The notes below the pieces were generated by a model. It was not told the DNA's origin and ran no database searches. It worked only from the letters and a program-made list of their open reading frames with translations. Made by a program: the position numbers and the translations under genes. From contig NZ_JBEKFG010000004.1 of assembly GCF_050013435.1 (NCBI RefSeq), forward strand, positions 12,967 to 76,966: DNA of 64,000 nucleotides, written 5' to 3'. Positions 741 through 61,145 of this stretch are shown piece by piece (position 1 is the stretch's first letter; each line of letters begins with the position of its first letter). The DNA is from Candidatus Binatus sp. GTDB taxonomy: Bacteria; Desulfobacterota; Binatia; Binatales; Binataceae.

Positions 741-1063
741 CTCACTCGTCCCCCCCGCCAAATCTCAAAGCTTAGGCCGACACCCTGCTGCGCGGGGCGC
801 ACTGTTGCAGAAATGTGCCATTGCGGATGTATCGGGGCTGCTACGCGGCCATCCGGCGTAGTGATTCTCAGCACAATTTCACGGCATAAGAGTTGCTCCT
901 ACACTGTTTGGCCTAATTTTGCACACTTTCGCCTAAGTCGTTGTATTCAGAAACGTCGGTTTATTTATTGTCTGCTTAGGGATGGATTTGCGATGAACCG
1001 CATGCGTGGCCATGAATGTGGTCAAGTCCCAGCGTTAACCGCCGCTTTCCCAGGGGAATCGTA

Positions 1064-37598: not shown

Positions 37599-38873
37599 GT
37601 GGAGGAGGACATGGGCACCAAAACAGCGATCGAATTAATGCAAGAGGAGTTGTTCAGAAAATCGCAAATGTTCGAGCGATATTCGGGATTCTGGTACGAG
37701 CAGCAGTCGTTCCTAGAAATGACCCGGATTGCAGGCTCAAGTCAGCTGGAATTCCTTTCCAAGGCAACCGAAGCGGCGCGTCTGTCGTTTAGCGCGGCTG
37801 ATCTAGTGGGTAGTTCGCTTTTGAAAACCCCTCTCGCTGCCCTTACGAAATCTTTTGCTGAACAGGCGACAGCCTTTCAGCAGATCAATAGATCGATAGC
37901 TAGCGATATGGGACGATTTGCACTGATTTCTGAGCAAATCGCGGCTCGGTTCCGTATGCCAGCGATCGAAGAAATGGCCGCGCTTAGAAATATGCTCGAA
38001 GCTGCTCACGAGGCCACAAGGTTCGTTGCGGAAAAAATGAATTTCCTTCGGGCGGCGGAGTCTTTTCAGGTCGCTTGGATCAATATCGAATCTCCGTTGA
38101 ATTCGCTTAAAGCCTTGTCTGATCTGAACGGGATTGGAAACGCCCTCAAGACTTTCCAACCCTTCGAATCTGAGTTAACGGGTATCCTACGATCGTCTCT
38201 AGGTGACTGGCGGAACGTGACAATTCCACAACCAGTCTATGAAGACGCTCTCGAAAGAGTTGATTTCTACGCGGGACAAGGCTTTGACCTCGAACTCACA
38301 AATTTCCCACAGCCCGCATTCGACCTGATTCTTGATGCGGCAGAGATCCGGCCCAGGTCGCCCTCGCTGGCGGTACGCAAGCTTGAAGGCGCGGTCACGA
38401 TAGAGCTTCTCACGGATCACGAATCTATGATGGGATTCGCCTACGATCTGTTGTTTGAACTCGAGAGCCGATTTAGAGCTTTCATCCACCGGCAGATGGT
38501 CAGCAGGTTCGGAGAGCAGTGGTTACAGCGTCAGGTTCCGGGTCCGATGCGGAAAGCGTGGGAAAGTAAACGAGCGGTGGCCCTTGAGCGAGGCGAACCC
38601 ATACAGGATTTGATTTTCTACGCAGACTTTACAGACTATGTAACAATCATATGCAGACGCGATAACTGGAATAGTGCTTTTCGAGAAGTGTTTCTCCGAA
38701 AGGAGGGCGTCCAGGAGGCATTTTATCGTCTCTTCCCGATCCGGATTTGCACAATGCACGCGCGACCGATCACACAGGCAGACCTGCTGCTGCTCTTCGT
38801 AGAGTCGGACCGCCTGCTCAAAGCCATCGACGCTAAATCGCGAAGAGCCACCAGAGAGGTCACGGCCCGATAA
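37599..38873 (+). CDS. HEPN-domain protein (C-terminal Swt1/Abi-like HEPN with Rx4H motif) in low-GC islet
   Basis: The C-terminal 140 aa read ..DLIFYADFTDYVTIICRRDNWNSAFREVFLRKEGVQEAFYRLFPIRICTMHARPIT.. (R-x4-H HEPN signature). The N-terminal 280 aa are helical and unassigned. Local GC is about 48-50% against about 66% in the flanks. Confidence 0.5.
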   Translation: MEEDMGTKTAIELMQEELFRKSQMFERYSGFWYEQQSFLEMTRIAGSSQLEFLSKATEAARLSFSAADLVGSSLLKTPLAALTKSFAEQATAFQQINRSIASDMGRFALISEQIAARFRMPAIEEMAALRNMLEAAHEATRFVAEKMNFLRAAESFQVAWINIESPLNSLKALSDLNGIGNALKTFQPFESELTGILRSSLGDWRNVTIPQPVYEDALERVDFYAGQGFDLELTNFPQPAFDLILDAAEIRPRSPSLAVRKLEGAVTIELLTDHESMMGFAYDLLFELESRFRAFIHRQMVSRFGEQWLQRQVPGPMRKAWESKRAVALERGEPIQDLIFYADFTDYVTIICRRDNWNSAFREVFLRKEGVQEAFYRLFPIRICTMHARPITQADLLLLFVESDRLLKAIDAKSRRATREVTAR

Positions 38874-42088: not shown

Positions 42089-43834
42089 ATGAAACTACTG
42101 CTTGCTTGTGGATGCTGCAGGCCATCAAAGTTCAAACGACACCGTGATACGACCGACGCGCCAATTGAGGCCACCCCCGAAGAACTGCAGGCGATAAGGC
42201 TGCAGCTGGCTGAGATCGAGCAATCGCTCTCGCGCCTATGGGGTCCGACAATTTGGAGCCGCACGCCCGAGTGCATCCAGGTACGCGCCGAGGCGGCGGA
42301 CCTGATCGACCGGCACTTCGACGGCATCGTCGACCAGTGGGTAGAGGCGATCGCCGCCATCACCGACAGCCGCGCTGAATACGATGAAAAGGCGCGCAGA
42401 GCCAGTTTGATCAATGCGCTGATCCGGCTGGGCGATCATCTGCGCGATCCCGACGACATTTGCACCTACGTTTATCTGCGCAAGCATTGCCAGGAGGGGA
42501 TGCTGGCGCGGGCCAAACCCTCTCAGTTCAACACTATCCACATCGCGCTCAAGCAAATAATTCTCAATCACGTAAAATCCTCAATGACCGGTCCCGCGAT
42601 GGAATTGGTGCGCGACCTGGTGGTCGCGGCAATCGACGAGCGGCGCCTGATGGTCTCGCAGTTCTACATCGAATCGCGCGAACGGTTGCTGCGCGAATCC
42701 GAAGAGAAGTACCGCAACACGATCGACCACGCGCCCGATCCAATGTATGAGATCGAAGCGGATACCTGGATCGTGACCGGGCTGAATGCGGCTGCCCTGC
42801 GGCTCCATCAAACGGAGGTGCCAGCAGCCGCCAGAGGTTGGTATGACCACGGCCATGACAAGATGCAGATTATTGGATATCCGATCACAGATTTCGTACC
42901 GCCGGAGCTAAGGGGAAGGGTGATCGACAGCCTGGAGACGGTTTTGCGCCAGGGATCGGCACAGAGCTCGGAATTTCCGATCGGGCCGCTCTTCTTCGAC
43001 GTAAACATCGCGCTGATCACCTATGGCAAGAAGGAATTCATCCAGATGATCTTGCGCGACGTGACGCAACGGCGCGACATGCTCGACTCGCTGATCAAGG
43101 CCGAGCGATTGGCGGCGGCGGGCACCTTCGCGGCGGGCGTGGCGCATGAGGTGAACAACCCGTTGGCGTCGATTTCATCGCTGGTTCAATCGATCCTGAC
43201 CGGCGAGAACGACCCCCAGCGGCGCACCACGCTGCACACCATCCTGTCCCAGATCACGCGCATCTCGAGCACGCTCAAGGACCTGGTGAATTTCGCGCGA
43301 CCGACCACGGCGCAACGCAAGCCGGTGGACGTCAACGGGCTGATCGGCGAGACGCTGCGGCTGATCAGCTACAACACCCGCTTCAGCGGCATCCAGGTTG
43401 AACCCATCCTTGATCCCGATCTGCGCCGCGCGTTTGCCGACGACAACGAAATTCAGCAGGTGCTGCTCAATCTGCTGTTCAACGCCGCCGACGCCTCCCC
43501 TGCCCAGGGCGGCGTGATCAAGGTGATCACCGAGAACCAGCGCGCCGGACAGGGCGCGGACAAATCGCGCCGGGTGGTTATCAAGGTGGTGGACAACGGG
43601 ATCGGAATCCCGCGCGAATATCTGGAACGCGTGTTCGATCCATTCTTCACCACCAAGCCCGCGGGCGCCGGCGTCGGACTGGGGCTGTCGCTATGCCAGC
43701 GCATGATCCTGTCCAACCAGGGCACCATTCGGGTTGACAGCGAGGTCGGCCACGGCACCACCATCACCATCACGCTGGCGGCCGCGGAGGATTCGGTCCG
43801 CGCGGAGCAGGCAGCGAGCATGGCCGCGTCTTGA
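42089..43834 (+). CDS. Sensor histidine kinase (PAS + HisKA + HATPase)
   Basis: H-box HEVNNPLASISS. N/G boxes NLLFNAADAS, VVDNGIGIPREYLERVFDPFFTTK, GVGLGLS. PAS region around residues 200-320. Confidence 0.8.
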   Translation: MKLLLACGCCRPSKFKRHRDTTDAPIEATPEELQAIRLQLAEIEQSLSRLWGPTIWSRTPECIQVRAEAADLIDRHFDGIVDQWVEAIAAITDSRAEYDEKARRASLINALIRLGDHLRDPDDICTYVYLRKHCQEGMLARAKPSQFNTIHIALKQIILNHVKSSMTGPAMELVRDLVVAAIDERRLMVSQFYIESRERLLRESEEKYRNTIDHAPDPMYEIEADTWIVTGLNAAALRLHQTEVPAAARGWYDHGHDKMQIIGYPITDFVPPELRGRVIDSLETVLRQGSAQSSEFPIGPLFFDVNIALITYGKKEFIQMILRDVTQRRDMLDSLIKAERLAAAGTFAAGVAHEVNNPLASISSLVQSILTGENDPQRRTTLHTILSQITRISSTLKDLVNFARPTTAQRKPVDVNGLIGETLRLISYNTRFSGIQVEPILDPDLRRAFADDNEIQQVLLNLLFNAADASPAQGGVIKVITENQRAGQGADKSRRVVIKVVDNGIGIPREYLERVFDPFFTTKPAGAGVGLGLSLCQRMILSNQGTIRVDSEVGHGTTITITLAAAEDSVRAEQAASMAAS

Positions 43835-43853
43835 GAATCGAAATGCGATGAAC

Positions 43854-45272
43854 AACGACGCTTCATGGACCGCACAGGAGCGCGGACCGTACCGGCTGCT
43901 GATCGTCGAGGACGAACCCTTGATGCGCTCGATCATCGTTCAGCTGGCGCGCAGCGAAGGCTACGAGGTGACGGAGGCGCCGGCCGCCGCGGTCGCGCTG
44001 CACATCTTCGAAAAAGAAAAAATCGATCTCGCGATTCTCGACCTTAACCTGACCAGCGGCGGCAGCGGACTCGATCTGCTGCGCAAGATGCGCGAACTCG
44101 ACCCCGAGGTGATGGGAATAATCGTCACCGCCTACGCCAGCGTCGAGTCAGCCGTCGAGGCGCTGCACCAGGGCGCTTACGATTACATCACCAAGCCGTT
44201 TGCCAACGATCACCTGAAGAAGGTGATGCGCAACGCGCTCGAGGGCAAGGCGCTGTTCAGGGAGAACCGTTTTCTGCGCCAGGAACTGCGCGAGAAGTAT
44301 CGCTTCGAGAGCATCATCGGCAAAAGCGACGCTATCGAAAGCGTGTTCCGCGTCATGGAAAAAGTCGCGCGCACCGACACCAGCGTGTTGATCACCGGTG
44401 AGTCCGGCACCGGCAAGGAACTGGTCGCCCGCGCGATTCATTTCAGCTCCGACCGGGCCAGCAACCGCTTCCTGCCGATCAATTGCGGCGCGCTGCCCGA
44501 GAACCTGCTCGAGAGCGAACTGTTCGGCTACAAACGCGGGGCATTCACGGGCGCCGGGGCGGACAAGGTGGGCCTGCTCAAGGCCGCCGACAAGGGCACC
44601 GTCCTGCTCGACGAGATTGGCGAGTTGCCGCTCGCGCTGCAGGTCAAACTGCTGCGCGCGCTCCAGGAGCGCGAGGTCTACCCGCTGGGCGCCAACGATC
44701 CGGTGGCGTTCGACGTGCGCGTGCTGTGCGCCACCAATCGCAACCTCGAATCCGAGGTCAAGGCCGGCCGCTTCCGCGAGGAACTGCTCTACCGAATCAA
44801 CGTCATCAACATCAACCTGCCCGGTTTGCGCGAGCGTCAGGACGATATTCCCCTGCTCGCCAACCATTTCCTGCGCAAGTACGAGAAGTCGTTGCCGCGA
44901 ACTGCGATGCGCTTTTCCAAAGGCGCGATGCGCCTGCTGATCAACTACGCGTGGCCGGGCAACGTCCGCGAACTCGAAAACGCCGTCGAGCGCGCCGCGA
45001 TTCTGGCCGAGACCGACGTCATCCATTCGCACGATTTGCCCGACAAGCTGCGCAGCACGTCGCCGGTGATGGCGAGTATCGAGAACTCGGGCCTCACGCT
45101 CGAGGAGCTCGAGCGCGAGCATATCAAACGCGTGCTCGACAAGGTCGAAAACGACAAGGTGAGGGCCGCGCAGGTGCTCGGCATTCACCTCTCGACGCTC
45201 TATCGCAAGGTTCAGCGCTACCACCTCGACGGCGACCTCCCGGTGAATCAGGAGCCTGCGCGCTCGGCATGA
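43854..45272 (+). CDS. Sigma-54-dependent response regulator (NtrC family: REC + AAA+ sigma54-activator + Fis HTH)
   Basis: [22 protein letters not shown]+ GESGTGKEL with GAFTGA motif and ESELFGY. C-terminal [17 protein letters not shown]. Confidence 0.85.
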
Positions 45273-45360: not shown

Positions 45361-45576
45361 ATGGATCTGTTTGCGCCAACTCACCTGCTGATCATTCTGC
45401 TGATCATTCTGGTCATCTTCGGGCCCAGCAAGCTCGGCGATGTCGGCGGCGCGATGGGCAAAGCGATTCGCGATTTCAAACGCGCGATGAACGAGCCCGA
45501 CGATACGGCCAAGACGGTAGCCAAGCCCGACGAGGCGAAGGCCGCCGATGTTGTAAAGCCCGACAAGATTTCCTGA
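45361..45576 (+). CDS. tatA: Twin-arginine translocase subunit TatA/E
   Basis: MDLFAPTHLLIILLIILVIFGPSKLGDVGGAMGKAIRDFKRAM, the canonical TatA TM plus amphipathic helix. Confidence 0.85.
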   Translation: MDLFAPTHLLIILLIILVIFGPSKLGDVGGAMGKAIRDFKRAMNEPDDTAKTVAKPDEAKAADVVKPDKIS

Positions 45577-45983: not shown

Positions 45984-45999
45984 CGGCATAAAAATTGCT
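45984..45999 (+). promoter_or_regulatory. Candidate sigma-54 (-24/-12) promoter for the upstream cytochrome operon
   Basis: cGGCAT-AAAAA-TTGCT, with GG and GC 12 nt apart as in the TGGCAC-N5-TTGC consensus. Same element ahead of the second cytochrome operon. An NtrC-type activator is encoded 700 nt upstream. Confidence 0.45.
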
Positions 46000-46328: not shown

Positions 46329-47513
46329 ATGCGCTCGTTGATGTCAGGTACACTAGTAGTGTTGCTGCTCGCGGCGCCGGCGTGGGTGCTGGGCGGCAGT
46401 TCGGAGGCGTCGGCGGCGTCGCCCGAGTTAGCGGCGGTCGCGCCCGGCATAACCTATCCTGTGCTCCCCACCGAGCTGACGCCGCCGACCTACGACTATG
46501 CGGCGCCCGAGACGTGCGCCGGTTGTCATTTTATAGAGGAAGGGAACTTACCTGGCCTCGACCACACTTCGCGTGTATTGGGCGTTTGGTTTGAGAGCGC
46601 TGCCGCTGTCAACGCTTCGTGTACGGCCGGTCCTACGACTTCGGGCGGGGTTACGACCCCCGGCGCTCCATTTGCGTGCTGTACAGGGAAAGGAGCAGGC
46701 ACTTGCTCGAGCATGTGGCAATTGACGGGCAGCGGATGGTTCGCCTCGCGGCACGCGCAGTCCGATTATGCCACGACCGAGAACGGGTTTTGCGCGAAGT
46801 GTCATTCGCCCCTTCAAGCTTACGCTCCCGCAAGCTTCAGCAATGGAGCCGTTGCCAATGCTCCCTCTGTTCCGCAGCAGCGATTCCAAGCTGTGACCTG
46901 TGCAACGTGTCATCCTCCGGATAACATCACCGCGCAGATCGGCGCGTTGAATCCAAGTGCTATGGACGGCGGGGCGGTCTCCATCTATCTCTGGAAGGGC
47001 TACAACAATCCCGCCTCCTATCAGACTCTGAGCACCGGAGTGAACTCCGACGGCACTTCGCAGGAAGACCTGCTATGCCTCAACTGCCATGAGCAGCGTC
47101 ACAACACCGACGATTCGGCCATGTGGGCTATGATGACGACCACCTACGGTCCTAACGGTGGTCCGGTCAGGTGCATCGATTGCCACATGTCGGAGTACCA
47201 GTTCATCGGTGGCGGCAGCACCGGCCTGCCGCTGCTCGAGGAAAGGTTTCACGACTGGAACGTTGGCGCGGACCTTCCTTACTCCTGCGGCGCGGTAGGA
47301 TCAGTGTCGGGATGTCATAACAGCACATATTCCACGTTCACTGTAGCCGACGCGCAGAACCTTATCCCGTTCATTAAAGAGCAGCACACCGATTGGTGGA
47401 CCCTGCCGCCGTTCAATGGAGTGGTACAGGCCGCAGTGCCGGCACACGGGGCGCCTACGCTCATTGAGTACAAGACACTAGAGCGAGAGATATCGAAAAT
47501 TGACGCCATGTGA
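46329..47513 (+). CDS. Secreted multiheme c-type cytochrome (5 CxxCH + one CX8CH)
   Basis: Signal peptide. CAGCH, CAKCH, CATCH, CLNCH, CIDCH, plus LPYSCGAVGSVSGCH (Cys-8 residues-Cys-His). Confidence 0.75.
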   Translation: MRSLMSGTLVVLLLAAPAWVLGGSSEASAASPELAAVAPGITYPVLPTELTPPTYDYAAPETCAGCHFIEEGNLPGLDHTSRVLGVWFESAAAVNASCTAGPTTSGGVTTPGAPFACCTGKGAGTCSSMWQLTGSGWFASRHAQSDYATTENGFCAKCHSPLQAYAPASFSNGAVANAPSVPQQRFQAVTCATCHPPDNITAQIGALNPSAMDGGAVSIYLWKGYNNPASYQTLSTGVNSDGTSQEDLLCLNCHEQRHNTDDSAMWAMMTTTYGPNGGPVRCIDCHMSEYQFIGGGSTGLPLLEERFHDWNVGADLPYSCGAVGSVSGCHNSTYSTFTVADAQNLIPFIKEQHTDWWTLPPFNGVVQAAVPAHGAPTLIEYKTLEREISKIDAM

Positions 47514-47526
47514 GCGCAGTAGGAAG

Positions 47527-49086
47527 ATGATGAATATCAACCCCGCCACATCGAGGCGACCGACGCAGCTACCCCCGGAGGCTTTTGTTCGTCCGGCTGG
47601 GCTCTACGGGCAGTTGCCAATCCCGAGACTGGCTCGGATCGCTGCGATTCTATGTGCGTTGATCCTCGCGTGGAATGCTCAGGGTTGGTGCGCCGGTCCC
47701 CTTCCCCTGAACCTGGACCGTCCCGACTATAATTACTCCGGCCTTACGTGTATGAGCTGCCACTTTAATGCTGCTGAGGGAAATCCCCTCCACACGTCGC
47801 GCGCCGCCGGTGTTACGTATAGCACCACCACGGGCATGTGGGAGCGAACCGGCCATGGCTGGTGGGATTCGCGGCACGCCCAGTCGCAGAACGGCTGGTC
47901 GAATCCGACGTCTACACTTGGCTGGGAACAGCCCAGCGGGACCTACGGCGAGAACGACAATACTTTCTGCGCCAACTGCCACTCGCCGCTTCAGGCCAGC
48001 GTGTACGGGGTCGCATCAATTTCGGAATCGGGCACCACGGCGACAGTGACGCTCTCGGCGCCAGGAATTCCGCTTGCGGACATCGCAGTCGGTGACACCA
48101 TATTCATCGCTGGCAACACCGTTGCTGGCTACAACAACGTTGAAACCACGGCGCCAGCCCCGGCCATAGGTGGATGGACGGTGACCGGTATCACGGATGA
48201 CCCCACCGACACCTTAGCGGCGACAATTACGTTCACAGGGCTTAGCCCTGGTGGTCTTGCGACCGGCACAGGCGGCACTCTCGGAGATACTACCAGGACG
48301 AGCGTGGTGTTCAGCGGCCAGGTGCAAAACCCGGTCACAGTTGTGAGCACTGCTACAGGTACGATCGCTGCAAGTGCTGTAGGCTTTACAGGCGTGTGGT
48401 GCAGTTCGTGCCATCCGAGCAGCAGCCTCGGCGCAGCGATTATTGCGCGATATCCCGGTGTTACTCTGGTATCGGGTGGCGTAACGGCTACGCTCGTCCG
48501 CGGCGCGAATCCGGCCCTGGCAGCCTCGTGGGTTCCGATACTCCCGGGTTTCGACCCTAATGGTGTTTCGTATGAAAGCGACTTCTGCCTGACCTGCCAC
48601 GAACAGGATCCGCATAACGCGGCGTCGAATTCGGTCTTTCAGGTAATGTACGCTTCGGGGGTCTCTTGTATCGATTGTCACATGGCACCATTTGCCATTA
48701 ATACCGGCACCACGGTCGATTCGTTCGGAACTCCGGCGGGGCTTACGGAGCGGTTCCATGACTGGAAGGTCGCCGAAAACTTACCGTACTCGTGCGGCGC
48801 ACAGGGTTCCCTAACTCAATACACCTGCCACTCGGGGTTCAACGCCGCCTCCGCTTTGGCTTATATCCCTTTCATGACCGGCCAACACAGCGCATGGTGG
48901 AGCCTGCCGCCGTTTTCGTCCTCCTCGGAAGCGGTATCAGCACATGAACTGAACGCGACCTCGGACCAGCTCGCGCTGTGGCGCGAGATACAGGCGGTTT
49001 ACGGAGCGAGCGGTAAAGATACCAACTATAAAGAAGCCAGCTATGAGGAAGGGGCCCGGCTGAAGGCCGTGGTCGCAAGGCCATGA
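47527..49086 (+). CDS. Secreted multiheme c-type cytochrome, paralog of 46329..47513 with about 130-aa insertion (5 CxxCH + one CX10CH)
   Basis: CMSCH, CANCH, CSSCH, CLTCH, CIDCH, plus LPYSCGAQGSLTQYTCH. Shares an ERFHDW.V...LPYSCGA block and a C-terminal 'HTDWWTLPPF'/'HSAWWSLPPF' block with its neighbour. Confidence 0.75.
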   Translation: MMNINPATSRRPTQLPPEAFVRPAGLYGQLPIPRLARIAAILCALILAWNAQGWCAGPLPLNLDRPDYNYSGLTCMSCHFNAAEGNPLHTSRAAGVTYSTTTGMWERTGHGWWDSRHAQSQNGWSNPTSTLGWEQPSGTYGENDNTFCANCHSPLQASVYGVASISESGTTATVTLSAPGIPLADIAVGDTIFIAGNTVAGYNNVETTAPAPAIGGWTVTGITDDPTDTLAATITFTGLSPGGLATGTGGTLGDTTRTSVVFSGQVQNPVTVVSTATGTIAASAVGFTGVWCSSCHPSSSLGAAIIARYPGVTLVSGGVTATLVRGANPALAASWVPILPGFDPNGVSYESDFCLTCHEQDPHNAASNSVFQVMYASGVSCIDCHMAPFAINTGTTVDSFGTPAGLTERFHDWKVAENLPYSCGAQGSLTQYTCHSGFNAASALAYIPFMTGQHSAWWSLPPFSSSSEAVSAHELNATSDQLALWREIQAVYGASGKDTNYKEASYEEGARLKAVVARP

Positions 49087-50336
49087 TGACTGGAGCATCG
49101 AAGCGAAGTAAGCGCAATCGGGCACCTGCCATGTGGTCGTTGTCGCTGTTGTTCTTTGGGCTGCTTGCGGTGCTGCCTGCGGCAGGCGCGCAAGCTGCCT
49201 CGAGCGACGAAGGCATGCTGCTTGCGGGAGGCCTGGATCAGCTCAATGGCCCGATGACCACCGCGGAGTATTACAACTTTAAGACGGCAGCCTTCTCCTG
49301 CAAGTTTTTAGGAGGAGTAAATGCTGCTGCCGGAGCGTGCAAGAACACTTTAGCGACGGGCCGTTTCTACGCGTCGGTGGCGCCGCTATCAAGCGGCGGG
49401 GTGTTGATTGCGGGCGGCAACAGCACCGGCGTGACCTGCCTCAACTCCGCGGAGATTTACAATCCGTCAACCGGCAGGTTTACTCCAACCGCTACCAGCA
49501 TGACTGACGCCCATTGTTTCGCGCATACCACCACCGTGCTGACGAATGGCTGGGTTCTAATCACCGGCGGAGAGGACACAACCGGAAACATCGTCAACAC
49601 CGCGGATATGTACAATCCGGCGACTGGGTTCACTTGCTCAACGCTTGGAGGAGTCTCGGCTACTACCGGCTACTGCACAAACACGATGACCGATGTCCGC
49701 TTCCTCGACACCGCAACGCTGTTAAAGAATGGCAGCGTGCTGATCGCGGGCGGTAACGATGGTTCGATCGTTAACACGGCGGAGCTTTTCAACCCCGTCG
49801 CGGGAACCTTCACTGCGACAGGGACGATGACCGACAGCCGCGAAAACCACACCGCCGCCCTGATCGTAACCGGGTCTAATTCAGGCGACGTGCTCATCGC
49901 CGGCGGTATCGACGCTGCGGGCAACGTGCTGCAAACTGCCGAGCTCTACAGTCCGACGGCCGGCACTTTTGCAGCAACCGGCACGATGACCCATCCCCGC
50001 TATCTGCATACCGCGACCCAGCTTAACACCGGGAAAATCCTGATCACCGGTGGCGAAGACGGAGCCGGTGCCGTGCTGGCGAGCGCCGAGGTATACGATC
50101 CTGTTTCCGCAACCTTCGCGTCGGTTAGCTCCATGACCACCGCTCGCGCGCTTCATACGGCTGTGCTGATTACCTCGGGACCCAAGAAGGGTTCTGTCCT
50201 GATCGCCGGCGGGATCGACAACAACGGCAATACACTCGGCACGGCTGAGTTGTACAATCCCAAAACCGGCAAGTTTACCGCGGCCGGTAGCATGGAACTG
50301 GGGCGCTCGTCGCAGGATGGTACGGCGCTGCCATAG
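49083..50336 (+). CDS. Secreted Kelch-repeat beta-propeller protein
   Basis: Signal peptide. Six or seven repeats of 'G.VLIAGG.D..G..L.TAELYNP.TG.FT..G.M...R..HTA.LL..G'. ATGA overlap with the upstream cytochrome. Confidence 0.7.
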   Translation: MMTGASKRSKRNRAPAMWSLSLLFFGLLAVLPAAGAQAASSDEGMLLAGGLDQLNGPMTTAEYYNFKTAAFSCKFLGGVNAAAGACKNTLATGRFYASVAPLSSGGVLIAGGNSTGVTCLNSAEIYNPSTGRFTPTATSMTDAHCFAHTTTVLTNGWVLITGGEDTTGNIVNTADMYNPATGFTCSTLGGVSATTGYCTNTMTDVRFLDTATLLKNGSVLIAGGNDGSIVNTAELFNPVAGTFTATGTMTDSRENHTAALIVTGSNSGDVLIAGGIDAAGNVLQTAELYSPTAGTFAATGTMTHPRYLHTATQLNTGKILITGGEDGAGAVLASAEVYDPVSATFASVSSMTTARALHTAVLITSGPKKGSVLIAGGIDNNGNTLGTAELYNPKTGKFTAAGSMELGRSSQDGTALP

Positions 50337-50351
50337 GGCGACGAGTGACCG

Positions 50352-51281
50352 ATGGCCGATTGTTCGCAATGTGAGACACCGTTCCCGATAGGCGCGAAGT
50401 TCTGCGCTGCGTGCGGCAATCGCGTCGATGCGGCTGGCGTGGACGAACTCCGGCGGCCAAGCGACAGCTGGCCTGGCCGTGGTGGCTTATCAGCTTCATG
50501 GATTGTCGCAGTCAGTGGCGCATTTTTGCTCGGCGGAGTCCTGACGTGGATGTTTATGCCTGCCGGGAAACACGACCGCTCGCAAGTCGCCATGCAGCCA
50601 ACTACCCAGGGACGTGCATCGACTTTGAACGGCCAGGTATCTGGCGTCATGCCGCCCGGACATTCGACGCCCTCCTTACCTTCTGGGCATCCGATGGCTG
50701 GTGGTCCGGCCCACGCCGCCGGCACGCTTATCGCCAAGGCGGAGAAACAGGCCAAGGCCAGTCCCAACGACATCGCAGCCTGGAACCGCCTCGGCGACGT
50801 GGCCTTCCGATCCGCGGTGTTCGACCCCGCGAATTATGACCACGCGCGTGAAGCGTTCACGCACGTGCTGGAACTCGACCCCGACAATCTCGACGCTCTG
50901 CGCGGGCTCGGAAACGTATGCTTCGATCAAAGACAACTCGACAAAGCGATCGCGGCGTACCAGCACTACCTGCGGCTTAAACCGAAAGACGCGCAGGTAC
51001 TAACCGATCTCGGCACGATGTATATGGCCCAGCAAAACTCGCACGAGGCGATCGCGCGCTACTCCGCGGCGCTCGCGCTGGCGCCGAGGTCCTTTCCAGC
51101 TCAGTTTAACCTTGGGGTGGCCTATCTGATGCTCAATGATAACCCCAATGCACGTGAGGCTTTGTCGCGCGCGCGCTCGCTTGCACCTGGAGACGCTGCT
51201 CGCACCAGGATCGATATGCTGTTGGCGCGAATAGATTCAAATGAAATGGCGAAGGGCACTGCTGCCAGCAAGTCGCGATGA
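50352..51281 (+). CDS. Zinc-ribbon / TM / TPR-repeat protein (CcmI/NrfG-like architecture)
   Basis: N-terminal CSQC..CAAC zinc ribbon. One TM helix. A periplasmic region with 4-5 TPR motifs (AWNRLGDVAF.., ALRGLGNVCF.., VLTDLGTMYM.., AQFNLGVAYL..). Confidence 0.6.
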   Translation: MADCSQCETPFPIGAKFCAACGNRVDAAGVDELRRPSDSWPGRGGLSASWIVAVSGAFLLGGVLTWMFMPAGKHDRSQVAMQPTTQGRASTLNGQVSGVMPPGHSTPSLPSGHPMAGGPAHAAGTLIAKAEKQAKASPNDIAAWNRLGDVAFRSAVFDPANYDHAREAFTHVLELDPDNLDALRGLGNVCFDQRQLDKAIAAYQHYLRLKPKDAQVLTDLGTMYMAQQNSHEAIARYSAALALAPRSFPAQFNLGVAYLMLNDNPNAREALSRARSLAPGDAARTRIDMLLARIDSNEMAKGTAASKSR

Positions 51282-51483: not shown

Positions 51484-54132
51484 ATGAACAAGTACGCAGG
51501 AAAAGTACGGATCGGCGTGATCGCGATCTTTTGTGGGCTCGCGTTTGCGATTGTCGGCCTTCATCGTTCTTCAGGCCGCGCCTATAGCGGGGTTCCCACC
51601 CCGACCCTACTGGTTTCGGACGTTTGCTCCTACGCCGTCACGGCTTACTCTGCCGCGAGCAACGGCGACGTCTCCCCGCTGATCCCCGTCCCTACCGGAC
51701 TTTCCGCACCGCAATTTGTGACCATTGACCCGAGTGGAAACATTTACGCCACCAACGCCTGCACCAACACCATCACCATTTACGCCGCGGGGAGCAAAGG
51801 CGACACCGGTCCCATCGCCATCATCGGCGGGCCCATGACCGGCCTGAGCGACCCAGCAGGCATCGCGCTGGATTCCAACCTCAACATCTATGTGGCGAAT
51901 GCAGGCGCCCCAGGCGTGTCTGTCTATCAGCCACTGGGAAGCAGCACCGGGCTGCTCAACGAGACCCCCATCGCCACCATCAGCGGGAGCAACACCGGCC
52001 TGCTCTACCCACAAGGCATCGCGGTGGATTCCAGTGGCAACATCTATGTGGCGGATGAAAGCGCCGCCAGCGTGTTTGTCTATCCGCCGCTGGCAAGCAG
52101 CACCGGGCTGCCCAACGAGAGCCCCATCGCCACCATCAGCGGGCTCGACACCGGCCTGAGCAGCCCCGAAGGCATCGCGCTGGATTCCAGCCTCAACATC
52201 TATGTGGCGGATGAAAGCGCCTCGAGTGTGTTTGTCTATCCGCCGCTGGCAAGCAGCAGCGGGCTGCCCAACGAGGCCCCCATCGCCACCATCAGCGGGA
52301 TCGATACCGGCCTGATCAGCCCATACGGCATCGCGTTGGATTCCACCACCGGCAAGATCTATGTGGCGGACGCGCTCGCCACCGGCGTGTTTGTCTATCC
52401 GGCGCTGGGAAAGAGCGTCGGACTGCCCGACGAGGTCCCCCTCGTCACCATCACCGGGAGCAAGACCGGCCTGAGCTACCCACAAGGCATCGCGCTGGAT
52501 TCCAGCGACGACATTTATGTGGCGGACACCAGCAGCGTGTTTGTCTATTCGGCGGGGAGTAAGGGCAATGCCGCTCCCAGTTCGGCCACCATCAGCACGA
52601 CCATGACCACCGGCCTGGGATGGCCACAAGGCATCGCGCTGGATTCCAGCGGCAAAATCTATATGGCGGATGACGGACCTGGAGCCAATGGCCCCGGCAG
52701 CGTGTTTGTCTATCCGGCCGGGAGCAAGGCCAATGCCGCTCCCACCGCCACCATCAGCGGGACCAACACCGGCCTGAGCTACCCACAAGGCGTCGCGCTG
52801 GATTCCAGCAAAAATATATATGTGGCGGACGAAGGCGCCGTCAGCGTGTTTGTCTATTCGGCGGGGAGCAATGGCAACGTCGCCCCCACCACCATCATTA
52901 GCGGGAGCAACACCGAGTTGGACACCCCGGAAGGCATCGTGGTGGATCCCAGCCTCAACATCTACGTGGCCGACGACGGTGACGGATCTTGCGATGGCAC
53001 CGAGAGTTTGTATGTCTATACGGCCGGGAGCATCGGCAATGCCGCCCCTGGCGCCACCATCAGTGGTGGCAACACCGGTCTGTGCTACCCGTACGGCATC
53101 GCGCTGGATTCCAACCTCAACATCTATGTGGCGGACGAGGGCGCCGCCAGCGTGTTTGTCTATCCTCCCTTGGCCAGCCTCCCCAGCCAGCCCAATTATC
53201 CCAACGTGACTCCCATCGCCACCATCAGCGGGAACAACACCGGCCTGAGCGGTCCGTACGGCATCGCGTTGGATTCCAGCGGCAACATCTATGTGTCGGA
53301 CTATTCCGCCAACGGCGTGCTTACCTATCCGGCGCTGGGAAGCAGCACCGGGCTGCTCAACGAGCCCCCCACCGCCACCATAAGCGGTCCGCTCACAGAA
53401 CTGGGGGAGCCTCAGTTCATCGCCGTCCAGCCGGCTGCCGCGCCGACACCGACGGCAACGGCGACTACCACGCCGACTGTGACGGCCACTCCAACCGCGG
53501 TGGCGACGACCTCGATATCGGTACCGAAGAAGCTGGACGTGGGCAAATCGACGCTGGGCAACACGGTGTCCAAGAACCTCGACGTGAAGAACACGGGGAA
53601 GGCGGACTTGTTCATCAACAGCGTATCCTCATCCGACCCTGAGTTCGTCCCCGGCGCCTCGACCTGTCCGGCGGGCGGGCTTGCGCCCAAGGGCAAGTGC
53701 ACGATCGCGATCGGATTCACGCCGACCGTGCTTGGCGCGGGTAGCGCGACGCTCACGCTCGACGATAACGCGGGCACGGGCACGCAGAACGTGGCGCTGT
53801 CGGGGACGGGGGAGCCCGATGTGACGGTATCGCCCGACAGCATCGCTTACGGCAAGGTGAAGTTGAGCGCAAAGAAAAGCAAGACGGTGAAGGTGAAGAA
53901 CGAGCAGCCGGTGGCGGTGACGCTGAGCCAGATCATCACCGGGACCGACGCGAGCTACTTCACGGTGACGGGCGGGACGTGCAGCGGCACGCTGGCGGCC
54001 AAGGCGAAATGCACCTACATCGTGACGTTCACGCCGGTGCTCGGCGTCGAGCGCACGGCGACGCTCAGTGTCACGGCGAGCCCCGACCTGCTAAGCCCGC
54101 ACAATGTGAGTCTAGCCGGCACCGGCTCATAG
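51484..54132 (+). CDS. Secreted NHL-repeat beta-propeller protein with Thr/Pro linker and C-terminal Ig-like (choice-of-anchor-D-type) domains
   Basis: SD GGGGAGAAG. TM/signal anchor. At least 12 repeats of 'P.GIALDSS.NIYVADE.A.SVFVYP' and an AAAPTPTATATTTPTVTATPTAVATT linker. Three LSGTG-bounded domains as in 1064..4810. Confidence 0.75.
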   Translation: MNKYAGKVRIGVIAIFCGLAFAIVGLHRSSGRAYSGVPTPTLLVSDVCSYAVTAYSAASNGDVSPLIPVPTGLSAPQFVTIDPSGNIYATNACTNTITIYAAGSKGDTGPIAIIGGPMTGLSDPAGIALDSNLNIYVANAGAPGVSVYQPLGSSTGLLNETPIATISGSNTGLLYPQGIAVDSSGNIYVADESAASVFVYPPLASSTGLPNESPIATISGLDTGLSSPEGIALDSSLNIYVADESASSVFVYPPLASSSGLPNEAPIATISGIDTGLISPYGIALDSTTGKIYVADALATGVFVYPALGKSVGLPDEVPLVTITGSKTGLSYPQGIALDSSDDIYVADTSSVFVYSAGSKGNAAPSSATISTTMTTGLGWPQGIALDSSGKIYMADDGPGANGPGSVFVYPAGSKANAAPTATISGTNTGLSYPQGVALDSSKNIYVADEGAVSVFVYSAGSNGNVAPTTIISGSNTELDTPEGIVVDPSLNIYVADDGDGSCDGTESLYVYTAGSIGNAAPGATISGGNTGLCYPYGIALDSNLNIYVADEGAASVFVYPPLASLPSQPNYPNVTPIATISGNNTGLSGPYGIALDSSGNIYVSDYSANGVLTYPALGSSTGLLNEPPTATISGPLTELGEPQFIAVQPAAAPTPTATATTTPTVTATPTAVATTSISVPKKLDVGKSTLGNTVSKNLDVKNTGKADLFINSVSSSDPEFVPGASTCPAGGLAPKGKCTIAIGFTPTVLGAGSATLTLDDNAGTGTQNVALSGTGEPDVTVSPDSIAYGKVKLSAKKSKTVKVKNEQPVAVTLSQIITGTDASYFTVTGGTCSGTLAAKAKCTYIVTFTPVLGVERTATLSVTASPDLLSPHNVSLAGTGS

Positions 54133-54656: not shown

Positions 54657-54860
54657 TTTAGAAATATTAATGAGAGGGCATTTTCCCAAGGGTCACAAGG
54701 CCGCCACGGAAGGGTCCTAAAGCTGAATGGTTCTTCCGGATACGATCGCGTTGTCTTTTGGACACAGTTGTCCTGTCTTGGGGGCGATGTGTAACCGACG
54801 GCGGTAAGCCGCTAGAGGGCGCGTTTGCCGACGGCGGACGCCCGAAATGGAGACGGCAAT
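54657..54860 (+). promoter_or_regulatory. Conserved 5' leader, second copy (see 46018..46328)
   Basis: Aligns to 46018..46223. Here the conserved GGAGACGGCAATATGGA ends exactly at the decaheme cytochrome start codon. Confidence 0.5.
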
Positions 54861-55883
54861 ATGGAGGAGGAACGCAGCTCGCGAAAGTTTTGGGCAGGTC
54901 TTTTGGTGGCACTGGTCGCGGTTGGAATCGCCTTCGTGTTTTCATCGCCCCCCGCAATCGGCGCGGAAGGCACCCTGCTTTCCCAAGCCGCGGGATCGGG
55001 GACGACGCTGCCGCCCGGCTACGTCCATAATGACACCTGCGTCAGTTGCCATGATGTGCAGGTCAAGGCCTTCCGCAACACGATGATGGGCCATCTTATG
55101 CTGGGCCGGCCGCGCGACGACCGAGAAAGCCTCGCGTGCCAGGCCTGTCATGGTCCCGGCCGCGAGCACTTACGCCATCCGAGCAAGCCGTCGCCGGGAT
55201 TTGTGAGCTTTCGCGAGACCTCCTTCAAGGACATCAAGGTTGAGAACGAGCGGTGCCTCGAATGCCATCAAAACGGCGAGCGCGGCTTCTGGCGGGCCAG
55301 CACCCACGCCGAGCGCGGCATTCGATGCGTCGATTGTCACGCCGTGATGTGTCCGGTGACGGCGAGCGCGCTGCCGCAGGCGCAACTCAAGAAGTCGCCG
55401 CTTGGCACGGAGTTCGTCAATCCATTCATCGTGACGCGCCCCGAAACCCAGGTTTGCCTGCGCTGCCATCTCGACAAAAAGATGGAGATCAATCTGCCGT
55501 CGCACATGCCGCTGCGCGAGGGATTGATGACGTGCACCGACTGCCACAACCCACATGGCGGGCCGTATCAGAAGCAATTGCGGGCGGCGATGGTCAATGA
55601 GGTCTGCTACCGCTGCCATGCCGAGAAGCGCGGGCCGTTCCTGTGGATGCATGCGCCGGTGGCGATGAACTGCATCAATTGCCATGTCCCGCACGGCAGC
55701 GTGAATCAGCACATGCTGGTGATCAACATGCCGGTGCTGTGCCAGCGCTGCCACATCGGAACTAGTCATACGAGTCAACCTCATAGGAGAGGTCAAATTT
55801 TCGTGATCAACCAGCAATGCGCCAATTGCCATTCACAGATACACGGCTCGAACTCGCCGGGCGGGAGATATTTCACGCGTTGA
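54861..55883 (+). CDS. Periplasmic decaheme c-type cytochrome, MtrA/PioA/MtoA/DmsE family
   Basis: Start MEEERSSRKFWAGLLVALVAV (signal anchor). Ten CxxCH motifs in about 340 aa, several as CxxCHxPHG. Directly followed by an MtrB/PioB-type barrel gene. Confidence 0.75.
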   Translation: MEEERSSRKFWAGLLVALVAVGIAFVFSSPPAIGAEGTLLSQAAGSGTTLPPGYVHNDTCVSCHDVQVKAFRNTMMGHLMLGRPRDDRESLACQACHGPGREHLRHPSKPSPGFVSFRETSFKDIKVENERCLECHQNGERGFWRASTHAERGIRCVDCHAVMCPVTASALPQAQLKKSPLGTEFVNPFIVTRPETQVCLRCHLDKKMEINLPSHMPLREGLMTCTDCHNPHGGPYQKQLRAAMVNEVCYRCHAEKRGPFLWMHAPVAMNCINCHVPHGSVNQHMLVINMPVLCQRCHIGTSHTSQPHRRGQIFVINQQCANCHSQIHGSNSPGGRYFTR

Positions 55884-55954
55884 AGCGGGAGGCACAGGAA
55901 AGCACGGCATCGCTGGGCCGCACCGCGTTTTGCAACCGGCCCGGGAGGAAAGTC

Positions 55955-58210
55955 ATGAACCTCAAGCGGTTGTTAGCCGGATGTGGAACGATGGCGCTCG
56001 TGTTGTCGATGGTCTCGCCGGCACTGGCACAGGTCGATGTCGGGAAATACACGGTGCAGGGATCGGTCGAGGCGGGCGCCATCCCCCAGCCCGTCCCCTA
56101 TGACGACTCCGCGGCGAAGTATCAGGAGTACCGCGATCTGGCGCAGCAGTTCATCGTGCCGAAACTCCAGTTGATCCTGGGCGACAAGGCGGAGAACTAC
56201 TACGTGCAGTTCGACGCGGTTAACGTCGCACAAAAGAACCAGATGTATTCGCTGCGCTTCGGCGAGTACGGCCTGCTCGATGTTCAGGCAAAATTCTTCG
56301 AGATTCCACACGCCTTCAGCGACGGCGTCGCGAGCACGCCATACGACGAAAACGGCGGCAGCTTCACGCTATCCTCGAAGCCCACTGGTACCGGCACCGC
56401 CCTCCAATCCTGGCTGGCAGCGAACGACAAACCGTTCGACATGAGCCTGCTCGAAGGTGTCGCGGACATCAACGTGCGCTATACGCCCACGCCGTCGCTG
56501 AGCTTCAGCGCGAACCTGGATTATCAGAACCCCACCGGCCAACAGCCATTCGGTGGCAGCTTCATGTTTGGCGCCAATCCGGGCAGTTACAAAGTGAACG
56601 AACTCTGGGCGCCAATTCAGTACTACATCTATAACTTCGGCACCGGCATGGAATACGCGAAAAACGGATGGCTGGTGGGGTTCCAGTACCAGGGATCCTT
56701 CTTCGTCGACGACTACAGCACCCTGACCTGGGACAACCCGCTCAATACCAGCGGAGTAGGCGGCAATTGCGTGGATTCCACCGTCTTCAGTTCCACGTCG
56801 CTTACCGGCCCATGCGAGGGACGGGCAGCGATGTATCCGAACAACCAGGCTCACAACTTCATCGTGAATGGAGCGGGTCAGCTTCCATTCAACACGCACG
56901 TGATGGGCAGCCTCGAGTACGGATTCTGGCTCCAGAACTCTCCCTTCATCCCGCTTACGAGCAACAGCACGCTGAAGCAGTCATTAAGTTCGGTCGGGGC
57001 GCCCAATAGCCTCGGCGGCGACGTGCAACCTTTCTTCGCCAACTTCACGATCGACAGCAATCCGATCGAGCCGCTGGACATCAAGGCGGTCTATACCTAT
57101 TTCGATTACGACAACCTGACGCCGGGGGTCACCTTCAAAGGCGTTAAGTCGCTCAATGACATCTCGGACCCGCAGATGCCTTTCAGCGCTTATCCCTTTT
57201 CATTTTCGGAGCAGGACGTCAGCCTCGAGCCAACCTACCACGTGACTGATACTATAGCCGCGCACTTTACTATGAAGTGGCAGACCAACCACAACGAGGG
57301 GCTGGAGGTGCTGCAGCAGGATCAGCTCAGCTATGGGCCTGCGCTCGATTGGAACCCATATCCGTGGCTGACTTTCCGGGCGGATTACCAGCACGCGCAC
57401 CGCGACTCGCCGGGATACAACAACAACCGCGCCGACCTAGTCGAGATCCTTGGCGGGATCCCGGGAGGGATCGCGGAGGTTCAGGACCTGCGGCGGTTCG
57501 ACGAGGCCACGGTCGATGTGAACCAGACTTCGCTCTATGCCTCCGTGCAGCCGATCGAAAACGTCAGCCTGTTCAGCTCCTTCAGCTACGACGACTATAA
57601 CTACCCCTCGACCGACTTCGGCCTGCAGCATACGTCGAGCTACACGCCGTCGGTGGGGGGCAGTTACGATCCGCTTCCGACCCTGCATTTTTTCGGCGAC
57701 TACGCATGGCAAGCGTACGATTGGAACCTAAGGTCGCTTTACGGGGGTACCGGCGTAAAGCCGGGTGTGCCGGGAAAATCGTGGGTTTGGACGGCGGATG
57801 GCCGCAACCAGGGCAACAATTTCGATCTCGGGATGGACGTCGCGATACCGCAGAATCATATCCTGAAGCGGCCGTCGCACCTGAAAATCCAGTACACCTA
57901 TACGGTTGGCAGCAACCTCACCCACCAATCGGGCGCTACGGCGGCCGGTTCGGCGTCGGAGGCGATCGACTATCCAAATGCCGGCACCCAGATGGAAGAG
58001 TTGATGGTTCAGTACGAGTACGATTTGCGCGACAACCTCGCGATCAACATCGGGTACTACTTCAACAATTTCGGCGAACACAATTACATGGTGGACCAGA
58101 TGGCGAACTACATGCCCGGCGCCAGCAAAAACTCGACATTTCTCGGCAACTCCGACATGTCCCCCTACAACGCCAATGTCGGATTCATAACTCTTAAATA
58201 CAAATTTTAA
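55955..58210 (+). CDS. MtrB/PioB-family outer-membrane beta-barrel (porin component of porin-cytochrome conduit)
   Basis: SD GGAGGA. Signal peptide MNLKRLLAGCGTMALVLSMVSPALA. About 750 aa, rich in alternating aromatic beta-strand pattern. C-terminal ..GFITLKYKF ends in the aromatic residue typical of OMPs. Position after the decaheme gene. Confidence 0.7.
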   Translation: MNLKRLLAGCGTMALVLSMVSPALAQVDVGKYTVQGSVEAGAIPQPVPYDDSAAKYQEYRDLAQQFIVPKLQLILGDKAENYYVQFDAVNVAQKNQMYSLRFGEYGLLDVQAKFFEIPHAFSDGVASTPYDENGGSFTLSSKPTGTGTALQSWLAANDKPFDMSLLEGVADINVRYTPTPSLSFSANLDYQNPTGQQPFGGSFMFGANPGSYKVNELWAPIQYYIYNFGTGMEYAKNGWLVGFQYQGSFFVDDYSTLTWDNPLNTSGVGGNCVDSTVFSSTSLTGPCEGRAAMYPNNQAHNFIVNGAGQLPFNTHVMGSLEYGFWLQNSPFIPLTSNSTLKQSLSSVGAPNSLGGDVQPFFANFTIDSNPIEPLDIKAVYTYFDYDNLTPGVTFKGVKSLNDISDPQMPFSAYPFSFSEQDVSLEPTYHVTDTIAAHFTMKWQTNHNEGLEVLQQDQLSYGPALDWNPYPWLTFRADYQHAHRDSPGYNNNRADLVEILGGIPGGIAEVQDLRRFDEATVDVNQTSLYASVQPIENVSLFSSFSYDDYNYPSTDFGLQHTSSYTPSVGGSYDPLPTLHFFGDYAWQAYDWNLRSLYGGTGVKPGVPGKSWVWTADGRNQGNNFDLGMDVAIPQNHILKRPSHLKIQYTYTVGSNLTHQSGATAAGSASEAIDYPNAGTQMEELMVQYEYDLRDNLAINIGYYFNNFGEHNYMVDQMANYMPGASKNSTFLGNSDMSPYNANVGFITLKYKF

Positions 58211-58331
58211 GCCGAGGCTATTGGAGTACGAGCAGCAAGAGTCCGGGACAAACAACGAATGACCTATCTTCCGCCGCGGCCCGGCCCGCAAATCAAACGG
58301 CGGAAAAGGAATGGAAGGAAGGAGAGAAGAC

Positions 58332-59612: not shown

Positions 59613-61145
59613 ATGCAAACGAGCGGAGATGAGCCGGGCGCGCCGGAAGTGGAGCGCCCGGAGGGGCAAAATGGCGGCGCAGCCGAACGCCAATTGCCAA
59701 GTTTGGCTCGCAATCGGCTGAGTATCGCTGGTCTGATCATTGCCGTCATCATCCTGGCGGACATGCTTTCCCTGGCCGGCATGACGATGCTGGGGGTGCA
59801 GCTGAACCCCTACGTCGGCATTTTTGCCTACCTGATCGGTCCGGCCGTCATGATAGTAGGCCTGTTGCTCATTCCGGCCGGCATGCTGATCGAACGTCGA
59901 CGGCGCCGGAGATTTTTGCCCGGTGAGCTGCCGCCCTTTCCCAAGCTCGATCTCAACCAGCCTTCGGTTCGGCGCGGCTTTCTCGGCGCGGTCGGCTTTG
60001 CGTTCTTTTTCGTGGCTCTCAGCATGGTGGCGAGCTACCAGGGCTACCAGTTCACGGACTCGGTGATGTTCTGCGGGCAGACCTGTCACGTCCCGATGAA
60101 GCCGGAATTCGACGCCTACCAGGATTCGCCGCACGCGCGGGTCGCATGCGCGGGCTGCCACGTGGGACCCGGCGCCACCTGGTTTGTTCGCTCCAAGCTG
60201 TCGGGCGCCTATCAGGTCTATGCGGTAATGTTCAACAAGTACCCCAGACCTATCGAAACTCCGATCAAGGAGTTGCGCCCGATTCGCGCTGCCTGCGAGC
60301 AATGCCATTGGCCACAGAAGTTCTACGGCGCGCAACTCAAGGTCTTCCCGCATTATGGATACGACGAGAAGAACACTCCCATGCGTATCCAGATGCTGAT
60401 CAAGACCGGAGGAGGAACTGCCGAATTCGGCCACGCCACCGGAATTCACTGGCACATGAACATCGCCAACGAAGTATGGTTCGCGGCTACTGACAAGCAG
60501 TCCCAGGTGATTCCGTGGGTAAAAGTGAGGACGCCTGACGGAAGGACCACGGAATACCTTGCCAAGGGCAGTACGCTGACCCCAAAGCAGATCGAAGCGA
60601 TGCCCATCCAGCAGATGGACTGCGTGAGCTGCCATGCCCGCCCGTCGCATAAGTTCCTTCCGCCCGATCAGGCGGTCGATGCGTCGTTCGAGGCGGGTCA
60701 GCTAGACCCTTCGCTGCCCTTCCTGAAGAGGCAGGCGGTCAAGGCCCTGATTAAGCACTACAGCACGTCGGAGGAGGCGGCCGAGGGAATCGCAACCTCC
60801 CTCGATACCTTTTACCGCAATCGCTATTCCGAGATTTATACCGTGAAGTGGCCGCAAATCCGCGCTGCCATCGCCGCCGTGCAGCAGATCTACAAAAAGA
60901 ACATGTTTCCTTTCATGCACGTTGACTGGCGCACTCATCCCGACAACATCGGCCACCTCTATTACCCGGGATGTTTCCGCTGTCACGATGGGCAGCACGT
61001 CAGCTCTGATGGCCGGGTGATACCGCAGGATTGCGATACCTGTCACTCGGTCCTTGCAACTCCTACAAGTGTCGCCCAGTTCAAGCATCCAGTTGATGTG
61101 GGCGACACGACTTGCAGCGCCTGTCATACAGGAGGCGTGCTGTAA
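59613..61145 (+). CDS. Inner-membrane heptaheme c-type cytochrome, ImcH-like (NapC/NirT-related quinol dehydrogenase)
   Basis: Two or three N-terminal TM helices. Seven CxxCH (CGQTCH, CAGCH, CEQCH, CVSCH, CFRCH, CDTCH, CSACH). Length (510 aa) and layout match Geobacter ImcH-type proteins. Confidence 0.5.
   Translation: MQTSGDEPGAPEVERPEGQNGGAAERQLPSLARNRLSIAGLIIAVIILADMLSLAGMTMLGVQLNPYVGIFAYLIGPAVMIVGLLLIPAGMLIERRRRRRFLPGELPPFPKLDLNQPSVRRGFLGAVGFAFFFVALSMVASYQGYQFTDSVMFCGQTCHVPMKPEFDAYQDSPHARVACAGCHVGPGATWFVRSKLSGAYQVYAVMFNKYPRPIETPIKELRPIRAACEQCHWPQKFYGAQLKVFPHYGYDEKNTPMRIQMLIKTGGGTAEFGHATGIHWHMNIANEVWFAATDKQSQVIPWVKVRTPDGRTTEYLAKGSTLTPKQIEAMPIQQMDCVSCHARPSHKFLPPDQAVDASFEAGQLDPSLPFLKRQAVKALIKHYSTSEEAAEGIATSLDTFYRNRYSEIYTVKWPQIRAAIAAVQQIYKKNMFPFMHVDWRTHPDNIGHLYYPGCFRCHDGQHVSSDGRVIPQDCDTCHSVLATPTSVAQFKHPVDVGDTTCSACHTGGVL

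Follow-up and report, generated by a model that had tools for sequence, protein, structure and literature searches.

What do two adjacent multihaem cytochromes of Candidatus Binatus sp. make of a motif in which the two cysteines of a haem attachment site stand eight or ten residues apart? The genes, called A and B here, lie in a stretch of 64,000 nucleotides (contig NZ_JBEKFG010000004.1, positions 12,967 to 76,966, forward strand), and this whole stretch is the window in what follows. An earlier note on this DNA, made from the letters alone, had described A and B as paralogs that both keep five CxxCH sites, a block ERFHDW.V...LPYSCGA and a long-spacer motif that it argued to be functional. The genes and their motifs are the following.

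46329..47513, plus strand: cytochrome A, 394 amino acids, with a Sec signal peptide, five CxxCH motifs and one CX8CH; a predicted hexahaem NrfA/OcwA-like protein.
47500..49086, plus strand: cytochrome B, 528 amino acids as called, a paralog of A with five CxxCH motifs and one CX10CH.
47286..47318, plus strand: the CX8CH motif of A (CGAVGSVSGCH, residues 320-330), the predicted sixth (terminal) haem attachment site.
48793..48831, plus strand: the CX10CH motif of B (CGAQGSLTQYTCH, residues 432-444).

Both open reading frames (ORFs) are intact and adjacent on the plus strand. The CxxCH motifs start at residues 63, 155, 191, 250 and 282 of A, followed by C320-GAVGSVSG-C329-H330, and at residues 84, 157, 301, 363 and 390 of B, followed by C432-GAQGSLTQYT-C443-H444; the five motifs, the long-spacer motif and the ERFHDW.V...LPYSCGA block were thus confirmed in both. 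The two proteins are 38% identical across their C-terminal 214 residues (E 1e-34), which bears out their description as paralogs, and match more weakly in their N-terminal parts. As called, B starts with a TTG codon, an ATG being found 9 codons downstream, and it contains a Thr/Gly-rich insert of ~130 amino acids between haems 2 and 3 (about 48010-48400). Residues 98-126 of A (46620-46706) form a low-confidence insert with four additional non-motif cysteines. Neither insert matched a Pfam family.

We consider it likely that A and B are a hexahaem, non-catalytic NrfA/OcwA-like pair with a stretched terminal-haem motif, and that they serve a porin-decahaem conduit. Both proteins would be exported by Sec as hexahaem c-type cytochromes. 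Their terminal haem would be held covalently by two thioether bonds from two cysteines between which a Gly-rich loop lies (8 residues in A, 10 in B), with the histidine following the second cysteine as the proximal ligand and the invariant Met268 probably as the distal one, in parallel with the His/Met haem 9 of OcwA. The spacer loop would bulge from the haem pocket, its length being free to change in evolution. As electron carriers, A and B would work with the MtrA-type decahaem and the MtrB/PioB porin encoded downstream, and also with inner-membrane NapC/NirT-type and cytochrome b-linked multihaem proteins, electrons passing between the quinone pool and an extracellular partner. In such proteins, counting CxxCH motifs alone would miss one haem each.

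A database search returned 171 homologs, all derived from metagenomes or metagenome-assembled genomes (MAGs), and the motif was tallied on the 120 that were listed. The few named ones carry the labels Candidatus Binatus, Terriglobia or Blastocatellia. The pattern C-G-[AV]-x-G-[SA]-...-CH was present in about 108 of the 120; the refuting condition set by the earlier note, homologs outside this genome lacking the motif, thus does not hold. The listed homologs without it comprise six that are truncated or frameshifted, three with a contracted LPYSCSCH and one in which CP replaces CH. The contracted form, a CXCH in place of the stretched motif, belongs to P0020, P0031 and P0046 (60-69% identity to A), at least two distinct sequences from separate clusters. 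We then aligned 84 full-length homologs, whose mean column identity is 26%. All 84 share the five CxxCH motifs, C320, G321, C329 and H330, together with H142, H308, H353 and M268; two further histidines, H79 and H258, are kept in at least 90% of the sequences. Conservation of the motif is far beyond chance. Outside the haem motifs, H142, H308, H353, M268, H79 and H258 are candidate distal ligands, as many as there are haems (six).

A family profile run exhaustively against 1.84 billion representative proteins yielded 192 matches at E<=1e-3 and 27 at E<=1e-30, which indicates a small family; profile E-values of 1e-40 to 1e-24 tie the window proteins to shorter relatives of 225-290 amino acids. 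Spacer lengths were read from a hidden Markov model (HMM) alignment of about 170 relatives. The commonest spacers are of 10 residues (60 sequences), 8 (50), 6 (27), 9 (16) and 2 (5); the rarer ones are of 11 (4 sequences), 5 (2), and 1, 3, 12 and 14 (one each), eleven lengths in total. Across all of them both cysteines and the histidine hold their register, and the histidine after the second cysteine is unchanged at every length. Independent MAFFT alignments placed every length difference strictly between the two cysteines, with the flanks H-[DN]-[FWM]-x-V...P-x-S-C and the downstream W/helix retained. Some relatives, such as P0137 and P0146, have a canonical CxxCH at the site of the stretched motif, and others loop out up to 14 residues. 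One haem position would thus occur with eleven spacer lengths, from the contracted CXCH via the canonical CxxCH to CX14CH, and this series offers a comparative set for the question of how the spacing of the cysteines is gauged or tolerated by cytochrome c synthases.

To which family do these proteins belong? A single-sequence search of the PDB gave no useful match, and in Pfam and NCBIfam scans A, B and ten relatives, each taken singly, had sub-threshold or generic multihaem matches only. A full-length profile of the long-spacer family had only marginal matches in the PDB as well; NrfA and OcwA were reached only by profiles that include the short-spacer relatives. A profile of the C-terminal module built on all spacer classes matched G. 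lovleyi NrfA (2.9e-8), OcwA (3.8e-8), TvNiR (3.4e-7) and E. coli NrfA (1e-6). In these alignments the fifth motif falls on the penultimate CxxCHM, H308 on a conserved histidine and the variable motif on the last CxxCH of all four solved matches, with the gap between the cysteines. The full-length superfamily profile, A6, reached OcwA at 3.7e-18, OmhA at 5e-15, TvNiR at 2.4e-12, E. coli NrfA at 6e-11 and, weakly, MccA at 3.5e-5. By these profiles A and B are a branch of the NrfA/ONR/OcwA superfamily, and the statement of the earlier note that the family was not recognisable no longer holds.

The alignment with E. coli NrfA (residues 94-308) takes in CWSCK, CADCH, CGQCH, CIDCHM and C..NCH in order, so that NrfA haems 1-5 have their colinear counterparts in family haems 1, 2, 3, 5 and 6. 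At the place of family haem 4 (CLNCH in A), NrfA and OcwA lack a haem motif, and OcwA has an HHPH segment there; we tentatively take this stretch of OcwA and NrfA to be the distal pocket of the active site. The long-spacer site had been presented as an extra haem. There is an extra haem, but it is the fourth CxxCH, and the long-spacer site corresponds to the ancestral terminal haem. An invariant methionine of the family lies seven residues before the penultimate haem motif, where OcwA also has a methionine and NrfA and TvNiR have a histidine. In published structural alignments, haem 5 of NrfA is equivalent to haem 9 of OcwA and to haem 8 of MccA, and OcwA haems 5-9 are equated with the NrfA core; MccA haem 8, at position 11 of Soares et al., has a CX15CH or CX17CH motif, and OcwA haem 9 is His/Met-ligated. 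The analogy with the MccA CX15CH motif drawn in the earlier note is therefore apt, since the same haem position is concerned. As in MccA-type motifs, the cysteines of A and B are conserved, stand more than four residues apart, and the second is followed by a histidine. Because the stretched motif falls on a canonical CxxCH in some relatives and on the last haem of NrfA, OcwA and TvNiR, and both cysteines and the histidine are invariant, it is very probably a haem c attachment site. The hexahaem, non-catalytic NrfA/OcwA-like reading follows from the profile matches and from the position of the motif on the last haem, that of the MccA CX15CH.

It could be argued that A and B bind five haems only, with a surface loop closed by a C320-C329 disulfide and with H330 as a distal ligand of another haem or in a structural role. 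Both proteins are exported to an oxidising compartment, A holds the four further non-motif cysteines of its insert, the model confidence at the motif is moderate only, and the five conserved non-motif histidines would be enough for five bis-His haems. However, this explanation does not account for the position of the site, which in alignments coincides with a canonical CxxCH of distant relatives and, in solved structures of the NrfA family, with the last haem, nor for a histidine that is invariant whatever the spacer length, and it leaves the invariant methionine aligned with that of OcwA without a role. We regard it as improbable.

The clear homology to NrfA, ONR and OcwA raises another explanation, namely that A and B are NrfA-type enzymes (nitrite, hydroxylamine or sulfur-oxyanion reductases) with haem 1 as the active site. 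Family haem 1 indeed aligns on the CXXCK haem of NrfA, and OcwA, the best match, has low published nitrite and hydroxylamine activity. In A and B, however, haem 1 is a CxxCH and not a CXXCK, the conserved candidates for distal ligands equal the haems in number (six), the fourth haem motif occupies the stretch that has no haem motif in NrfA and OcwA, and the genetic context is a porin-decahaem conduit rather than nrfH or nrfBCD. Neither protein shows the CXXCK or open distal site with its pocket that marks NrfA-type catalysis. An enzymatic role is thus unlikely, and it is because of the six distal candidates for six haems and the missing CXXCK that we read A and B as electron carriers.

Single-cysteine attachment of haem c occurs in nature, and a spacer ranging from 1 to 14 residues might make a fixed two-point attachment hard to keep, so that C329 could form the only thioether (an xxxCH-type site) and C320 be a redox-active thiol, a cross-link or have some other role. 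This is highly improbable, as C320 is as invariant as C329 and is set between a conserved LPYS and an invariant glycine, and MccA CX15CH and OmcZ CX14CH are treated in the literature as two-cysteine haem motifs. Membership of the MtrC/OmcA/UndA group was rejected: PF22113 stayed below its cutoff of 30 bits (27.8 and 22.9), TIGR03507 had no match for A and 8.5 bits for B (cutoff 209.3), six haems stand against about ten, and there is no lipobox.

Several observations weigh against the hexahaem reading. The count of six haems is derived from sequence motifs, and one homolog, P0091, ends its motif with CP instead of CH. The AlphaFold2 model of A is of low quality, with a predicted local distance difference test (pLDDT) score of 66; that of a 285-residue homolog, P0097, reached 80.3, with a predicted TM-score of 0.74. 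At the motif the confidence is moderate (pLDDT about 57-67 in A and 69-77 in P0097), and the models contain no haem. In both, the last motif is followed by a pair of long helices, which is what membership of the NrfA family would lead one to expect. A Foldseek comparison of the two models with the PDB gave no significant match, so that the homology rests on sequence profiles. The CX15CH sites of the MccA type depend on lyases of their own, which are CcsA1 in Wolinella and SirEFG together with TPR chaperones in Shewanella, and no homolog of ResB, CcsA or CcmF was found among the window ORFs scanned with Pfam. Finally, the lack of a lipid anchor suits a periplasmic protein as well as a surface one: the signal peptides of the family are of Sec type I, and a lipobox-like pattern was seen in 4 of 111 members only. 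We nevertheless lean towards the surface as the likelier location of A and B, on the basis of these signal peptides, of one family member with a C-terminal Big_1 Ig-like domain, of the monohaem carriers encoded in the window and of the distant relatives in Thermoleophilia and Chloroflexota.

The association with a conduit is read from the gene cluster around A and B, which is made up as follows.

42089..45272, plus strand: sensor histidine kinase and sigma-54-dependent response regulator, upstream of A.
45361-45576, plus strand: TatA/E-family ORF of 71 amino acids (PF02416, E 6e-17), between the response regulator and A.
45984-45998, plus strand: GG-N10-GC element (cGGCAtaaaaaTTGCt) that resembles a sigma-54 -24/-12 promoter.
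49083..50336, plus strand: Kelch-repeat beta-propeller with a signal/anchor sequence.
50352..51281, plus strand: protein with a Zn-ribbon, one transmembrane segment and TPR repeats (PF23914 TPR_CcmH_CycH, 44.8 vs 42 bits).
51484..54132, plus strand: NHL-repeat propeller with Ig-like (ASH/DUF1573-type) domains.
54825..55883, plus strand: MtrA/DmsE-family decahaem cytochrome with 10 CxxCH (TIGR03508, 229 bits, cutoff 192).
55817..58210, plus strand: MtrB/PioB-family outer-membrane porin (PF11854, E 3.5e-68).
58311-58745 and 58911-59324, plus strand: two tandem monohaem class I cytochrome c ORFs, candidate periplasmic carriers.
59613..61145, plus strand: NapC/NirT-type membrane multihaem cytochrome with six CxxCH and one CX3CH (CGQTCH, residue 154).
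61173-62474 and 62464-63294, plus strand: 11-haem cytochrome and cytochrome b subunit.

In this setting A and B would be an accessory component of the conduit, with a candidate role in electron transfer. The order decahaem, porin, monohaem cytochrome c, NapC/NirT-type protein resembles the mtoA-mtoB-mtoD-cymA order of iron oxidisers, and for this reason the electron flow could be inward. The 11-haem cytochrome and the cytochrome b are fused into one protein in the acidobacterial loci described below, several of which also encode close homologs of the NapC/NirT-type protein (tblastn about 550 bits). The TPR protein is a weak candidate for an apocytochrome chaperone of the NrfG/CcmI type, the similarity being that of TPR repeats in general (PF23914 44.8 bits, NrfG 18.8 bits). 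The sigma-54-like element is located within an AT-rich spacer ~330 nucleotides upstream of A and downstream of the sigma-54 activator gene; over the window the promoter pattern is no commoner than expected by chance (67 vs 73 matches). A histidine kinase/response regulator pair also adjoins the cluster in L008, the sole related locus checked for it. A second NHL-repeat protein (1264 amino acids, 1016-4810, plus strand), larger and with the same Ig-like domain types, is encoded 45 kb upstream, and an NHL protein has also been reported with a porin-cytochrome cluster of Tenderiales. An ORF with a Swt1-like HEPN domain (37599-38873, plus strand; PF18731, E 1.4e-6) is unrelated to the cytochrome cluster.

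How widespread is this arrangement? One genome per species was scanned, which gave 54 loci, all in MAGs, and synteny was assessed by tblastn on the 46 that are not duplicates. Strong matches were found in Binataceae (many deposited as 'Deltaproteobacteria'), Terriglobia and Blastocatellia, and a few weak ones in Thermoleophilia and Chloroflexota; all hosts are uncultured. A decahaem gene and a porin-sized neighbour accompany the family gene in 31 of the 46 loci, and in 23 of the 25 with flanks of at least 5 kb on both sides. Two arrangements can be told apart. The Binataceae type has A, B, Kelch and TPR genes with MtrA and MtrB (8/8 loci), the Kelch gene coming after the A-B pair in all related loci of this MtrB type. 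The acidobacterial type has a decahaem gene, a gene for a ~690-residue protein and then one to three family genes. The ~690-residue protein had no Pfam match and no detectable relationship to MtrB (hhalign probability 7.7%); its role as a porin is therefore suggested by size and position only. The A-B-Kelch-TPR-NHL block of one locus labelled Terriglobales (L006, JBEKZP010000054.1) has 87% identity to that of the window, whereas the remaining close relatives belong to Binataceae, and this suggests mis-binning or recent transfer. An unannotated family is in this way assigned to porin-cytochrome clusters of uncultured soil and peat Binataceae and Acidobacteriota, groups in which extracellular electron transfer is now being proposed from metagenomes. 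Divergent conduits broadly of this type have recently been described for peat Acidobacteriota in a preprint that does not address the family or its motif; our literature search for Binatota conduits or OcwA-like hexahaems found no description of this family.

How a stretched site would be matured is a question that the related loci allow us to approach. Haem c with a long Cys-Cys spacer is known from very few proteins (MccA, OmcZ), in which it complicates maturation and heterologous expression, and a literature search for CX5-CX13CH haem sites found no paper describing one. Of 25 acidobacterial-type loci, 10 have a ResB-CcsA pair at a distance of up to 10 kb; of the 8 MtrB-type loci, none has one. 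The CcsA proteins of the Terriglobia clusters form a tight clade (494 amino acids, 70-100% identity), other CcsA being at most 44% identical; two further members of this clade were located in the same cluster, and the Blastocatellia cluster copies form a separate clade. In Terriglobia (L004, 14117-18576; L060; L061) the ResB-CcsA genes are followed by a conserved ORF of 68-70 codons, and the same loci carry, after ResB-CcsA, a CDF cation-efflux gene and a multihaem::cytochrome b fusion. These divergent CcsA could be dedicated synthases or reflect mere lineage divergence. That the haem position with this spacer series (1-14 in the family) is matured in Acidobacteriota by cluster-encoded divergent System II synthases, of ResB/CcsA lineages found only beside these genes, is a tentative proposal that we hold to be doubtful. 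If true, haem lyases that tolerate the spacer or are specific to it would form a new class, and their substrate would be a surface cytochrome of Binatota and Acidobacteriota from soil and peat that had so far escaped recognition.

Among known systems, the closest solved matches to A and B are OcwA, the nonahaem surface cytochrome of Thermincola potens (6I5B), and OmhA (6QVM). Colinearity with OcwA extends over its residues 185-435, including the last two haem motifs; the methionine before the penultimate haem is common to both, the last haem of OcwA being His/Met-ligated, helices follow the last haem, and a part in extracellular electron transfer is proposed for both. However, A and B have six haems rather than nine, do not have the c554-like N-terminal module, carry a haem motif where OcwA has the HH residues of its presumed distal pocket and replace the CxxCH of the last haem by CX8CH or CX10CH, and their hosts are diderm bacteria with a porin-decahaem conduit. 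With NrfA (E. coli, 1GU6) they share the CxDCHM penultimate motif and the histidine between the last two haems, but they have no CXXCK and no nrf partner genes, an additional haem lies between NrfA haems 3 and 4, and the terminal motif is stretched. Compared with the conduits of the MtrCAB and MtoAB type, A and B also adjoin a DmsE/MtrA-family decahaem and an MtrB/PioB porin; they are, in contrast, neither MtrC/OmcA-family proteins nor lipoproteins, and Kelch, TPR and NHL genes are additional.

The long spacer itself has two counterparts. The octahaem sulfite reductase MccA/SirA belongs to the same superfamily and has its long spacer at the same haem position; its spacer is of 15-17 residues rather than 8-10 (1-14 in the family), it is an enzyme with a Cu site, and it requires dedicated lyases, a need that A and B may or may not share. 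OmcZ, the Geobacter nanowire cytochrome with a CX14CH motif, is a polymerising octahaem with no detectable sequence relation to A and B, but it too is a cytochrome of extracellular electron transfer with a long-spacer haem. Attempts to express native OmcZ, with its CX14CH, in Shewanella failed; once the loop had been deleted to leave a CxxCH, the protein was produced and formed nanowires, and this engineered deletion mirrors the natural spacer series found in the family of A and B.

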